DNA of 64,000 nucleotides from Escherichia coli O127:H6 str. E2348/69 (GCF_000026545.1 NC_011601.1), one strand, 5' to 3'. Shown: positions 35,533 through 41,500, numbered from the stretch's first letter. A program made the numbers.

Positions 35533-38500
35533 TAATTAAAATCTCTGTTAAAGATGTATAACCCGGCATCTATGTGCTCACCAGCATATAGATGCAATGT
35601 GATTCCCCTGATGGTCGTATCAGAGATGGTATGCGAGCCTGTACATAGATTTGTGTAATTGCCTGATTTTGATATGTTCAATCCAACATCAAAAGCAGGT
35701 TAATTTATGGACGAAAAACAGTTGCAGGCTCTGGCTAACGAACTGGCCAAAAATCTCAAAACCCCTGAAGATCTCAGCCAGTTCGATCGCCTGCTGAAGA
35801 AAATCAGCGTTGAGGCAGCTCTCAACGCTGAAATGTCCCACCATCTGGGCTACGATAAAAACCAGCCTAAACCGGGTGCCAACTCCCGCAATGGCTATTC
35901 CACAAAGACCGTTATCATCGGTGATGGCCCCCTGGAACTACGCACTCCGCGCGATCGTGATGGCTCTTTTGAACCGCAACTTGTGAAGAAAAACCAGACC
36001 CGGATCACCGGGATGGATAACCAGATCCTGTCGTTGTACGCCAAAGGCCTGACAACCGTAAGCGTACAGCCTGAACCGTCTGGTCAGAATCTGACGAATT
36101 AGAGTAAGCGTAAACCGACCGCCGTATGTAGCCATTAGACAAGAATTGGTAACTTAGACGCCCATCTGACACAGACGGACATCTAAGTATGGAATTACAG
36201 GACTGGCGAAAAGAACCTCGTAAAAAGTATTCGAATGAATTCAAACTTCGTATGGTTGAACTGGCATCACAACCTGGAGCTTGTGTTACACAGATTGCAC
36301 GAGAAAATGGCGTCAATGATAATGTTATTTTCAAATGGCTCAGGCTCTGGCAGAACGAAGGGCATGTTTCGCGGCGTCTTCCGGTAACAACCTCTTCTGA
36401 CACTGGCGTTGAATTATTACCTGTAGAAATAACGCCGGATGAGCAGAAAGAACCTGTGGCGGCCATTGCGCCGTCTTTATCCACTTCCACTCAGACCAGA
36501 GTCAGTGCCAGTTCCTGCAAGGTGGAATTCCGTCACGGTAACATGACGCTGGAAAATCCATCGCCAGAGCTGCTCACGATGTTAATCCGCGAACTGAGCG
36601 GGAGGGGAAGATGATTTCACTCCCATCAGGTACCCGTATCTGGCTCGTTGCCGGCGTTACCGATATGTGTAAATCCTTCAACGGACTGGGAGAACAGGTA
36701 CAACATGTGCTGAATGATAATCCCTTCTCCGGTCACCTGTTTATCTTCCGTGGCCGACGGGGGGACACCGTTAAAATTCTTTGGGCTGATGCTGATGGTC
36801 TGTGCCTGTTCACCAAACGCCTGGAGGAAGGCCAGTTTATCTGGCCTGCGGTGCGTGACGGTAAGGTATCCATTACCCGCTCGCAACTGGCAATGCTCCT
36901 CGATAAGCTGGACTGGCGTCAGCCAAAAACATCCCGCCTTAACGCCCTGACAATGTTGTAAAAAACACCTGGCCGCATTATAAAAACGGCCATGAGTCAG
37001 AAATACCTCATTCGCATTGCAGAACTGGAAAGCCAGCTCCGTCAGAAAGACCAGCAACTGAGTCTGGTTGAAGAGACGGAGGCCTTCCTGCACTGGCACG
37101 TGCCGAAGAAAAGATCGAAGAAGATGAACGGGAAATAGAACATCTGCGGGCTCAGATAGAAAAACTGCGCCGGATGCTGTTCGGTACCCGTTCTGAAAAA
37201 CTGCGTCGTGAAGTTGAACAGGCTGAGGCCCTGCTGAAACAACGCGAACAGGACAGCGATCGTTACAGTGGGCGGGAAGACGATCCACAGGTTCCCCGCC
37301 AGTTGCGACAGTCGCGCCATCGTCGTCCGTTACCGGCACACCTTCCCCGTGAAATACAGCGTCTGGAATCTGAAGAAAGCTGTTGCCCGGAGTGTGGCGG
37401 TGAGCTGGATTATCTGGGGGAAGTCAGTGCAGAACAACTGGAACTGGTGAGCAGCGCCCTGAAAGTGATCCGCACAGAACGGGTAAAAAAAGCGTGTACA
37501 AAATGTGACTGCATCGTTGAAGCACCGGCGCCGTCCCGCCCGATAGAGCGTGGTATCGCGGGCCCCGGATTACTTGCCCGCGTGTTAACGGGAAAATACT
37601 GCGAACACCTGCCACTGTATCGTCAGAGTGAAATCTTTGCCCGACAGGGTGTCGAACTGAGCCGTGCATTACTCTCCAACTGGGTTGACGCGTGCTGCCA
37701 GTTAATGACGCCGCTGAATGATGCCCTGTACCGTTATGTGATGAATACCCGCAAGCTTCACACTGACGACACACCGGTAAAGGTACTGGCACCGGGCCTG
37801 AAAAAGACGAAAACAGAGCGCATCTGGACGTATGTCCGAGATGATCGCAATGCGGGTTCGTCATCTCCTCCGGCGGTCTGGTTCGCGTACTCACCGAACC
37901 GGCAGGGGAAACACCCGGAGCAACACCTCCGCCCCTTCCGGGGTATCCTGCAGGCGGATGCGTTCACAGGTTATGACAGGCTGTTCAGTGCAGAACGTGA
38001 AGGTGGTGCGCTGACAGAAGTTGCGTGCTGGGCCCATGCCCGGAGAAAAATCCACGATGTATACATCAGCAGCAAAAGTGCGACGGCAGAAGAAGCCCTG
38101 AAGCGAATCAGTGAACTGTACGCCATCGAGGATGAAATACGGGGATTACCAGAGTCAGAGCGTCTTGCAGTCAGACAGCAGCGAAGCAAAGCGTTACTGA
38201 CGTCGCTGCATGAATGGATGATGGAGAAGAATGGCACGCTGTCGAAAAAATCCAGACTGGGCGAAGCGTTCAGCTATGTACTGAATCAGTGGGACGCCCT
38301 CTGTTATTACAGTGATGACGGACTGGCGGAGACGGACAATAACACAGCGGAAAGAGCGCTTCGTGCAGTTTGTCTTGGAAAGAAAAATTACGTGTTCTTC
38401 GGTAGCGATCACGGCGGCGAGCGTGGTGCACTGCTATACGGGCTGATCGGCACCTGCCGTCTGAACGGTATCGATCCGGAAGCGTATCTGCGCCATATTC

Positions 38501-41500
38501 TGAGCGTACTGCCGGAATGGCCCTCCAACCGGGTTGATGAACTCCTGCCATGGAACGTAGTACTCACCAATAAATAAGCGTCAATACGGTGCTCCGTTGA
38601 CGCTTACCTTCTTTCATTCGCTGAAGGTGGAATGTATCCACGGGGAACGCTTTAGCAGCCGGGAAATAATGCGGGAAACGGTGTTTAATTATATCGAGTG
38701 TGATTACAATCGCTGGCGTCGTCACAGTGCCTGTGGCGGTCTCAGCCCGGACTGTCTTGCACTGCAAATATTCAGAAATGAGTCTATGCAGTTCACCAGT
38801 AAAATCAGCCATCAGAGAGGGAATGGCCTTATTAATGCCCTGCCCTGGTATTAATGTGTAAGTTCACAGAGATATTGCAATTGCCTCCGGATAAGTAAGG
38901 GGAGATTGCACTATGCAAATGCAGCATCTGATGGTTGGCTATCCTAAGTACTACCAAACGGCCGATTATGCGTTGAGGCTTTCAGTGATGGCTGATATAG
39001 CAACAATGAGAATGAAGGCTCTGCACTTCTGGGATAAACACGGTATTTCTGCAGCTTCTGAAGCCTTTGGCGTGTCCTGCCGCACGCTTTACTGGTGGCG
39101 TCAGTTACTGAACAAGGAAGGACCTGAGGGGCTAATCCCGCACAGTAAGGCACCTCTGGTGCGACGAAAAAAACACTGGCATCCCGATGTGCTGAAAGAG
39201 ATTCGACGCCTCAGGACAGAGCTGCCGAACCTCGGTAAAGAGCAGATTTTTGTTCGCCTGAAGCCCTGGTGCGAACAGCGCTATCTGGCCTGTCCGAGTG
39301 TTTCCACCATCGGCAGAATGATCGCTGCCGCACATGATAAAATGCGGATGATACCTGTGCGTCTGGGATCGCGGGGGAAGGCACTGCTTGTCAAAAAGCG
39401 GTCTGCCAAACCCCGCAGGCCAAAGCACTACCGCCCGGTAAAGACAGGTGAGCTCATTGGGATGGACGCCATTGAGCTCAGAATGGGCGAACTGCGTCGC
39501 TATGTCATCACCATGATCGACGAATGCAGCAATTACGCGCTGGCGCTGGCTGTGCCGTCACTCAACAGTGATATCGTCAATCACTTCTTCAGCCGCGCAG
39601 CCCGGTTGTTCCCGATCGGTATCAGCCAGATAATCACAGATAACGGAAAAGAGTTCCTGGGAAACTTCGACAAAACGCTGCAGGAAGCCGCTATCAAACA
39701 CCTCTGGACCTATCCCTACACGCCAAAAATGAACGCTATCTGTGAACGTTTTAACCGGACGTTAAGAGAGCAGTTTATTGAATTTAATGAGATTTTACTC
39801 TTTGAAGATCTGGCGCTATTTAACCAGAAGCTGGCGGAATATCTGGTGCTGTATAACAGCAAAAGACCCCACAAGGCGCTCGCACTAATGACGCCCGTGG
39901 AATATATTTTAAAAGAGAATAAAAATTGCAATATGTGGTGGACCCATACAGGGTCTTGACAATTTTGGCAAAACAGATTTATGATGGAATTCAACTTACT
40001 AGATAACTGAAAGTTCTCGAGTCCGGGCACCACTATTCTAAAGAACCCGCCCACAAGGCGGGTTTTTGCTTTTGGATCTGACAATAACCTTCACGAAAAA
40101 ACTTAGCTTATAAGGGCTGGAGGAATTACTCTCGCCACGTTAACGAGAGTAATTTTATTGATATTAATCTCCTGATACTTTACCCCGCCCAAACTCCAGC
40201 CGCTGCACATTCACCATCCCAGGCTTCTCACCTGCGCTGACATCAATTTGTGTCACTCGCAGCGCATATTTTTCATCCAGCGCGTTTAACCAGTTCAGCA
40301 GGTCATTAAACACCACAGGTTCTATCCAGACTTGAATATTCTCCCCACGCTCGGCAATCCGTTTGATGACCACCGAGTGCGCGGAAGCGCTGTCACTGAT
40401 GACCCGCGATACCTGTGCTGGCGTTGTCGTGGCGGATTTTCGCGCCGCAATAATATCCGGCGCGGCGCTCTTCAGTCGCGCGTTCATCGCCACGAGCTGC
40501 TGCAACATCGTCTCCTGTTGCTCAATCCGTTCGCTCAACGGCTGCCAGATGAGAACGTAATATCCGGCGCTAAACAGGAACACTACCGCTGCCAGTAACA
40601 TGCCTTTTTCACGCGGAGAACGCCCCGCCAGGTGTTGTGTCAGCCAGTGTTCGCCACGGCTTAACTGGCGTTCACGCCATTGCTGAAAATAGTGAATAAA
40701 TTTATCGCGTAACATGTTATTTCCTCCGCAACGTTACTCCGCCGGAAACCGCATCACCCTCTTTCTGTAACGCGTCCTGTTGCACAACATAATCTGCCGC
40801 CAGTGCGCTACGCAGTTTGTCGAAGCTGGCAAAGTTCGCAGCCCGTAGCTGGAGGTGAAGCGTCTGGCGTTTTTGATCAAAGGTGAAACCACGCATTTCG
40901 ATGTCGGTAAGTGACGCTGATTTCAGGGTACTGGCGATCGCTGACAATTCTGCGAGCAGCCGGGTATCGTCGGCCTGTGGGCGATATTTTTTCAGCGCCA
41001 TCGTCACCTGAGAGCGTAAATTCACAATCCGCTTCTGCTCCGGGAATAGCGTTAAGAACTGTTTCTCCGACTGGGTGCGGCTTTGCGCCACCTGTTCGCT
41101 GACGCTCCATAACGTCACGCCCCGTTCCACTACCAGCGCAACCAGAATCAGCAATATCGGCAGAATCATCACCCGCCAGCGCGCCCACTGTTTTCGGTAG
41201 CTGACACGAGGCTGCCACGGCCCTGTTAGCAGGTTCCCTTCCGGTTCGCCATAAGTGGTAATGGCTGGCAGAGCCGTAACGGTCAGGCGTTCGGCGTCCG
41301 CACCAGCCCATGCAGACAGTTCTTCCGGTGCAATGCCGACCACGGTTAGTGAAAGCGGTATATCCTGCTCATTGAGCTGTGCGCGGAACATGACCGGAGC
41401 CAGCGCCCGCCCGGCGCTCCATCCCCGGCATTCATCGATGCGGCAGATAACCCGTTGCGCATCGCCAGCCATAAACCCACAAGGAATAGACATCCAGTCC

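Follow-up and report, generated by a model that had tools for sequence, protein, structure and literature searches.

The insertion sequence nest downstream of efa1/lifA

This work concerns a nest of insertion sequence (IS) fragments next to the lymphostatin gene efa1/lifA of enteropathogenic Escherichia coli O127:H6 str. E2348/69. The window, which is the whole stretch of 64,000 nucleotides that was analysed (NC_011601.1), carries, from 100 bp beyond the end of efa1/lifA, the head of an IS256-type element, the first 46 bp of ISEc8, a frameshifted ISEc47-like element of the IS66 family, an internal piece of an IS3-type element, a piece of a yagK/yfjJ-like gene and an IS481-family element. We consider it very probable that these pieces are a non-functional nest of IS debris at the right end of the pheV island of OI-122 type (IE6). 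The 4.8 kb round the nest shows 100% identity to the E2348/69 chromosome, and assembly CP059840.2 equals the window base for base. The IS names used here are the product names that the Prokaryotic Genome Annotation Pipeline (PGAP) gives to the closest intact copies, the pieces were assigned to families by NCBIfam and Pfam profile searches, and the counts of junctions and remnants refer to a panel of 5,426 complete E. coli genomes. The components of the nest, with their window positions and strands, are the following (nt, nucleotides; aa, amino acids).

35635..36057, plus strand: 5' fragment of an IS256-family element, with left repeat GAGCCTGTACATAGATTTGTGTAATTGCC, a 72-bp leader and 117 transposase codons (PF00872, NF033543)
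36058..36103, plus strand: left-terminal remnant of ISEc8 (IS66 family), nt 1-46 of the 2442-bp element, beginning GTAAGCGTACAGCC
36104..38607, plus strand: ISEc47/ISEc23-like IS66-family element, 2504 bp, both terminal repeats, from alignment to intact copies
36189..36614, plus strand: tnpA of the ISEc47-like element, intact, 141 aa (NF047595, PF01527; WP_000422705.1)
36611..36961, plus strand: tnpB of the ISEc47-like element, intact, 116 aa (NF033819, PF05717; WP_000624681.1)
36992..38577, plus strand: tnpC pseudogene, frame shifted by a 7-bp deletion (PF03050, PF13005, PF13007, PF13817)
38608..38751, plus strand: internal orfB fragment of an IS3-family element (IS3 group, ISEc16-like), 144 bp, 48 codons (NF033516, PF13333)
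38752..38854, minus strand: internal fragment of a yagK/yfjJ-like gene (inovirus Gp2 family), 103 bp, residues ~40-72
38855..39950, plus strand: IS481-family element, 1096 bp, with repeats TGTGTAAGTTCACAGAGATATTGCAATTG and TGTATGGGTCCACCACATATTGCAATTTT, the right limit of the finding

The central ISEc47-like element starts at 36104 with GTAAGCGTAAACC and ends at 38607 with GTTGACGCTTAC, and these positions are the ends of intact 2532-bp ISEc47/ISEc23 copies that bear 8-bp target duplications elsewhere. Its inverted repeats begin with GTAAGCGT. The left repeat GTAAGCGTAAACCGACCGCCGTAT and the reverse complement of the right repeat, GTAAGCGTCAACGGAGCACCGTAT, are alike in 20 of the first 24 nt, and imperfect terminal repeats beginning GTAAGCG place the element in the ISEc47/ISEc23 type of the IS66 family. 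By the ISfinder convention, an isoform has at least 95% nucleotide identity to a named element. The 2504-bp copy reaches this level with both named relatives (96.9% to the ISEc47-family-named copy and 95.9% to the ISEc23-family copy), and it is 96.9% identical to a 2511-bp variant with an intact tnpC. The tnpA-tnpB-tnpC trio with a DDE-type TnpC was also recognised by the profiles NF047595/NF038385, NF033819 and NF033517, the last scoring 450 bits against a cutoff of 180. A preliminary description of this DNA, made from the sequence alone, had given the element exactly these ends, imperfect inverted repeats and a frameshift early in its third gene, and it was right on all three points.

The frame of tnpC is not uninterrupted, as it would be in a functional, autonomous element. 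When aligned to intact relatives, tnpC lacks 7 bp (CTGCGCT, between CTGC repeats) at 37087/37088; the frame is lost after codon 32, and the gene is out of frame at codon 33. As read now, it gives a 48-aa open reading frame (ORF; 36992..37138) and a 467-aa ORF (37174..38577). Putting the 7 bp back restores a single 530-aa ORF that is 97.6% identical to the intact TnpC of the 2511-bp variant, and therefore the 7-bp deletion is the only disabling mutation in tnpC. A 21-bp in-frame difference from ISEc47 and ISEc23 is also carried by the 2511-bp variant whose tnpC is intact, and so it is harmless. Five loci from four strains were checked for the 7-bp lesion, and each of them has it: E2348/69 (two assemblies), O55:H7, FORC 064 and O103:H2. 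As it stands, the copy can neither make a full-length TnpC nor transpose on its own; mobilisation in trans is conceivable, with both ends and intact tnpA and tnpB kept.

On the left, the preliminary description had seen an IS256-type head of 131 codons. The family assignment stands (PF00872, NF033543), with an IS256 Mutator-type transposase match to PF00872 at E=3.4e-21 over profile positions 16-121 of 379; NF033543 scores 70 bits, less than the 150 set as its cutoff for whole proteins, since no more than 117 of the 402 codons are left. The codon count does not stand. In the 131-codon ORF (35707-36102), only the first 117 codons (35707..36057) are IS256-derived, and the last 14 read through the left end of ISEc8. 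The fragment amounts to 423 of 1315 bp, or 32% of the element, and it possesses the left repeat only (35635), the right two-thirds being gone. Independent copies of the IS256-type element match the window from 35635 to 36057 only. After 36057 they go on with CGCGAAATAG while the window goes on with GTAAGCGTACAGCC, which places the break precisely where the left repeat of ISEc8 begins. The following 46 bp (36058..36103) are identical at 46 of 46 nt to the left end of a 2442-bp ISEc8 copy flanked by the 8-bp duplication GAACAACC; independent of IS256, this piece recurs in 3,395 of the 5,426 genomes, with the homology starting exactly at 36058. Read from these junctions, ISEc8 appears to have cut the IS256 element, and the ISEc47-like element appears to lie within ISEc8.

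The same IS256-type element was also seen, at 99.5% identity, in O157:H7 strain SS TX 313-1 (locus L011, 2501-3460), by the prophage-region gene nleG7. In this copy, ISEc8 sits the other way round and breaks the gene 45 bp further in than in the window; another ISEc8 right-end fragment comes next. Its left repeat directly adjoins another IS66-type repeat (GTAAGCGGCTCGCC...).

On the right, homology to IS3-type elements runs from the first base after the IS66 right repeat (38608) to 38751. The preliminary description had taken this piece for the last 80 or so codons of an IS2-like orfB. It is indeed a C-terminal piece of an IS3-family integrase core (rve), covering positions 319-366 of 369 in NF033516 and matching PF13333 at E=4e-16. 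It is not from IS2, whose specific model NF006918 gave no match to the fragment at E<=0.001, and it is internal and only 48 codons long. The 144 bp are 89.6% identical to K-12 IS3 (BLASTN) and 99.3% identical to ISEc16-type elements. The match ends 28 nt short of the orfB stop, the last 9 codons being gone, and within these 144 bp there is neither a terminal repeat of the TG...CA form nor the orfA/orfB frameshift. The next segment (38752..38854) is a 98% nucleotide match inside annotated YagK/YfjJ genes. Thus the 85-codon ORF in this region is chimeric: 3 codons come from the IS66 right repeat, 48 from the IS3/ISEc16-like orfB and the last 34 from the antisense strand of the yagK/yfjJ-like fragment.

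Mismatched flanks and the proposed order of events

The preliminary description had proposed to look for 8-bp target duplications at 36104 and 38607. None is present at these two positions, the left flank being GAATTAGA and the right flank CTTCTTTC. Control copies of ISEc47, ISEc23 and ISEc8 do carry 8-bp duplications (AAACATCG, TATAATGG and GAACAACC, respectively). The two flanks of the window copy come from different elements and therefore were never one target site, and mismatched flanks imply at least one deletion or recombination after insertion, with its end-point exactly at an IS terminus. With three IS families, two different IS66-family elements stacked together and mismatched flanks, the earlier proposal, that insertions and deletions followed one another downstream of lifA, is essentially right. 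In detail it needs revision, as the ISEc8 remnant had been overlooked and the right fragment misnamed.

The following history would account for the arrangement. An IS256-type element would have landed 100 bp 3' of lifA, and ISEc8 would then have entered its transposase gene at codon 117. An ISEc47-like element would have entered ISEc8 in turn, 46 bp in. A deletion, produced either by recombination with a second ISEc47-like copy or by the transposase as an adjacent deletion, would have left the non-matching flanks and taken with it the remaining ISEc8, the remaining IS256 and most of an IS3-type element. A separate illegitimate deletion would have joined the IS3 orfB remnant to yagK/yfjJ, and a 7-bp slippage deletion would have disabled tnpC. 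The composite, frozen in this state, would have reached many attaching-and-effacing E. coli lineages, both by vertical descent and together with the island. Finally, in E2348/69 only, an IS481-family element would have arrived at 38855, and the remaining right-hand module of the island would have been lost.

Recombination and adjacent deletion fit the mismatched flanks equally well. In the first case, RecA-dependent recombination between two direct ISEc47-like copies, one in ISEc8 and the other in the IS3-type element to its right, would have removed all the DNA between them and left one hybrid copy. We regard this as quite plausible, if short of probable. Both junctions fall cleanly at exact IS termini, IS66-family elements occur in several copies and are frequently nested in these islands, and an ISEc23 within the left repeat of ISEc8, with its target duplication, is known elsewhere (NZ_CP021454.1). 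On the other hand, neither parental junction occurs in the panel, and the copy shows no left/right switch in its divergence from ISEc47, ISEc23 or the 2511-bp variant. In the second case, a single ISEc47-like copy in ISEc8 would have transposed intramolecularly, in a one-ended or replicative manner, into the IS3-type element and made an adjacent deletion. This is a possible account that we put forward tentatively. It agrees with the deletion end-point exactly at the right repeat, the IS481 right repeat of E2348/69 'variety 2' shows the same geometry, with divergence from the first base beyond it, and the tnpC lesion could post-date the event. Against it, the chemistry of IS66-family transposition is, to our knowledge, not established.

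Some points weigh against the history proposed above and against the inactivity of the nest. The order of events is inferred from the junctions and was not observed. The junction that should have existed before the deletion (the ISEc47-like right end, GAATTAGA and ISEc8 from nt 47) has no contiguous match in the panel, all full-coverage matches to this query being in two separate pieces, and it has no exact match in metagenome contigs. The IS3-like end CTTCTTTC joined to an ISEc47-like left end is absent from the panel as well; the only matches to this query, in three genomes, combine an unrelated ISEc16 with a different IS66 element 270 bp away. A third query, which joins the ISEc8 right end to TGACAACC and the continuation of IS256, reached a coverage of at least 80% in 0 of the 5,426 genomes. 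No clear mosaic breakpoint was found in the IS66 copy when it was compared in 200-bp windows with ISEc47, ISEc23 and the 2511-bp variant. As for the inactivity, the 467-aa ORF could still give an N-terminally shortened TnpC, and PGAP annotates a 496-aa TnpC product as a normal protein in O103:H2.

A further idea concerns the nesting itself. ISEc23/ISEc47-type elements may prefer the terminal few dozen bp of ISEc8, homing to the inverted repeat of a relative. In the window, the ISEc47-like element sits at ISEc8 nt 46; a right end of ISEc23/47 type lies within about 110 bp of the ISEc8 left-end query sequence in 17 of the 5,426 genomes. Likewise, the IS256-type element has taken up ISEc8 at two sites 45 bp from each other, once in each orientation. 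The alternative to homing is that these are insertions into neutral DNA that were tolerated, and we consider homing unlikely. If true, a real target choice would explain the pile-up of IS66-family elements in islands. An independent second case of such nesting comes from strain H105 (NZ_CP021454.1, locus L016, 1490-4053), where an ISEc23 has entered the ISEc8 left repeat at nt 24 and still has its 8-bp duplication AACCGTCT intact.

The simpler arrangement of the preliminary description, a single IS66 element inserted into a ready-made junction of an IS256 head and an IS2 tail, is very improbable. The three families do occur in the stated order and the ends of the IS66 element are intact, but the 8-bp duplication that its relatives make is lacking, the left flank consists of 46 bp of ISEc8 rather than IS256, and the right flank is ISEc16/IS3-like, internal and without a match to the IS2 model NF006918. 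It had also been said that the arrangement would fail if the flanking fragments belonged to the family of the IS66 copy, and this is partly so, the 46-bp left neighbour (ISEc8) being of the IS66 family. Weakest of all, to the point of being hardly credible, is the view that the tnpC frameshift is programmed or that this copy remains an autonomous, active IS. In its favour, no damage is seen in either inverted repeat, in tnpA or in tnpB, and the 467-aa ORF keeps the zinc-finger and DDE domains. Against it, the closest intact relatives have one continuous ORF of 530-537 aa, what sets this copy apart from them is 7 bp lost between CTGC repeats and not a slippery site, the element occupies one fixed position in all carriers, and of 5 matching places in E2348/69 only this one is full length and 100% identical among the matches listed.

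Island context, distribution and age

The nest lies at the right end of a ~29-kb pheV island (IE6, OI-122-type) carrying efa1/lifA. A tRNA-Phe gene (pheV) lies at 10615..10690, the 15-bp direct repeat of its 3' end (10676-10690) has a partner at 40018-40032, and core-genome homology restarts at 40014; together these positions put the nest at the right island end. The two features that bound it in the island are the following.

25864..35535, plus strand: efa1/lifA (lymphostatin), 3223 codons, from the ORF call and RefSeq WP_001239081.1
40018..40032, plus strand: attR, 15-bp direct repeat of the pheV 3' end (CGAGTCCGGGCACCA), the right island end

The gene order of the island is pheV, integrase, IS66-family debris, pagC-like, espL2, nleB, nleE, an IS630 pseudogene, efa1/lifA and the IS nest. 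Only 67 bp of island sequence are left between the IS481 right repeat and attR. In a scan of 35400-40200 for promoters and terminators, the counts equalled the shuffle expectation and none could be attributed to the nest; the sole convincing terminator in this range is a pheV-type hairpin at 40041-40067, 3' of attR. The modular structure of OI-122 has been described, and the papers that cover its modules do not describe the nest (PMC9144400, PMC7545054).

RefSeq annotation already covers the IS256, IS66 (tnpA, tnpB and the frameshifted tnpC), IS3 and IS481 pieces. Therefore, the feature is already known and annotated, with the 46-bp ISEc8 remnant as the only piece without RefSeq annotation. 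Other ISEc8 remnants lie by the pheV integrase in minus orientation, at window positions 12233-12892 (ISEc8 nt 1783-2442, 99.4% identity, right repeat included at 12233) and 12929-13061 (nt 251-383, 100% identity). They are followed by a second IS66-family element, ISCro1/IS679-like, with a truncated tnpC. These remnants were considered as the missing rest of the ISEc8 remnant at 36058 and rejected, by reasoning on orientations and coordinates, which fit neither a single split nor a simple inversion.

The IS481-family element at the right limit has an IS481-type DDE transposase and TGT... terminal repeats. The transposase scores 222.1 bits with NF033577 against a cutoff of 224 and bears the PGAP name IS481 family transposase, and related IS481-type copies match 38855/6..39950. 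A comparison of the flanks of the element gave no target duplication. In other efa1 islands, colinearity with the window ends at 38855, and yagK/yfjJ and zinc-ribbon genes come next; hence the IS481 element and the loss of the right module are specific to E2348/69.

Several side observations were made on this element. Its transposase ORF (38913..39959) overruns the right repeat (39950) by 9 nt and takes its stop codon from the flanking DNA; of the two E2348/69 assemblies, PGAP annotates a complete transposase in one, and in the other, which has a different flank, it reports the C-terminus as incomplete. In E2348/69 'variety 2' (NZ_LT827011.1, locus L001, 7951/7952) the sequence is identical up to the last base of IS481 and diverges at 39951, with yghX and gpr where attR and yghD would be. 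The change resembles a deletion or rearrangement next to an IS that took place in a laboratory lineage, and the type II secretion genes on the yghD side would be lost through it. At 19276-19931, upstream of espL2, lies a decayed relative of the element with 76-84% identity to 38855-39950; it overlaps a PGAP 'transposase family protein' pseudogene.

The distribution of the junctions bears on the age of the nest. The left triple junction (IS256/ISEc8/ISEc47-like) is 100% identical in 63 of the 5,426 genomes, the carriers including O55:H7, O103:H2, O121:H19, O145:H28, O45:H2, O111:H2, atypical O157:H7 and rabbit isolates. The right junction (ISEc47-like/IS3/yagK) is found in 348 of them, in many serotypes with typical O157:H7 among them. 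The O55:H7 locus is colinear with window positions 35400-38855 at 99.88% identity, and the core composite has junctions at 100% and an identity of ~99.9% over 3.5 kb across O55:H7, O103:H2, O121:H19, O145:H28, O111:H2, O157:H7 and O127:H6. A 67-nt query across the left junction had no match in the GTDB species-representative genomes (one per species). Because the junctions are identical and the tnpC lesion is shared across lineages, the composite, including the lesion, is an old scar inherited with the efa1 module and not a product of recent activity in E2348/69.

The preliminary description had also spoken of a recombination hotspot. Later insertions and deletion end-points do occur here in several lineages, while the core composite is fixed, an ancient scar. 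In FORC 064, ISCro1 is inserted at 37126-37133 with an 8-bp duplication, and in O103:H2 an IS3-family fragment lies at 37185/6. ISCro1 is listed under the match in several other strains, and IS30, ISEc31 and IS2 are listed in others. In typical O157:H7, a full ISEc8 replaces the region from efa1 through the 3' end of the ISEc47-like tnpA. Two more such events belong to E2348/69, the arrival of IS481 and the divergence of 'variety 2' right after the IS481 right repeat. Such lineage-specific insertions and deletions in or beside the nest give limited support to the hotspot idea. They are in keeping with ordinary dead IS DNA, in which insertions are tolerated and which supplies homology, and no special mechanism is required.

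O157:H7 strain PV15-279 (locus L017, 1-7800) shows the layout of typical O157:H7. A full ISEc8 adjoins the 3' end of the ISEc47-like tnpA, no efa1 coding sequence is annotated, and a truncated pitB lies on the right of the nest. Such a layout implies that the chromosome has lost the yghD-pitB segment at the IS cluster.

IS-rich junctions between pathogenicity-island modules are textbook matter, and the nest is of little importance in itself. Its exact junctions (IS256/ISEc8/ISEc47-like and ISEc47-like/IS3/yagK) make stable markers, shared across lineages, of the efa1/lifA module in islands of OI-122 type. The nest also marks where large lineage-specific deletions start, namely the efa1 truncation and the yghD-pitB loss in O157:H7, the loss of the right module in E2348/69 and a further deletion in the laboratory variant, and today it mainly offers neutral ground for insertions and homology on which further IS-driven rearrangements can act. 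With the corrected anatomy, the chimeric 131-codon and 85-codon ORFs should not be mistaken for real gene fragments.

Comparison with known elements and islands

Each piece of the nest can be set beside an intact relative. The IS256-family element of pE110019_65 is intact, with 1315 bp, a 402-aa transposase (WP_000343706.1), both repeats and the 8-bp duplication ATGTGCAA. It shares the left repeat with the window piece and is 99.3% identical to it over 423 bp; unlike this relative, the window piece stops after nt 423 (codon 117), where it is cut by ISEc8. The IS256-type element has no specific IS name in PGAP, and its identity to ISEc39 is only 67-69%. In the case of ISEc8, the left repeat and nt 1-46 are identical in the window and the rest of the element is absent. 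In tnpC, ISEc8 and the ISEc47-like element beside it share only ~70% identity, and so the two are distinct elements. The latter has its termini (GTAAGCGTAAAC... and ...GTTGACGCTTAC) and its tnpA-tnpB-tnpC order in common with the 2532-bp ISEc47 and ISEc23, and it differs from them in its length of 2504 bp, its private 7-bp tnpC deletion and the lack of an 8-bp target duplication. Unlike IS3 and ISEc16, the IS3-type piece is internal, without orfA, the frameshift site, the orfB end and the inverted repeats.

At the level of the island, IE6 of E2348/69 and OI-122/SpLE3 module III of enterohaemorrhagic E. coli are the same island with the same gene order. In typical O157:H7, a full ISEc8 stands in place of most of efa1, the IS256 piece, the 46-bp ISEc8 remnant and the left end of the IS66 element. 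E2348/69 stands apart from the other carriers by an IS481-family insertion of its own and by the loss of the yagK/yfjJ and zinc-ribbon module on the right.

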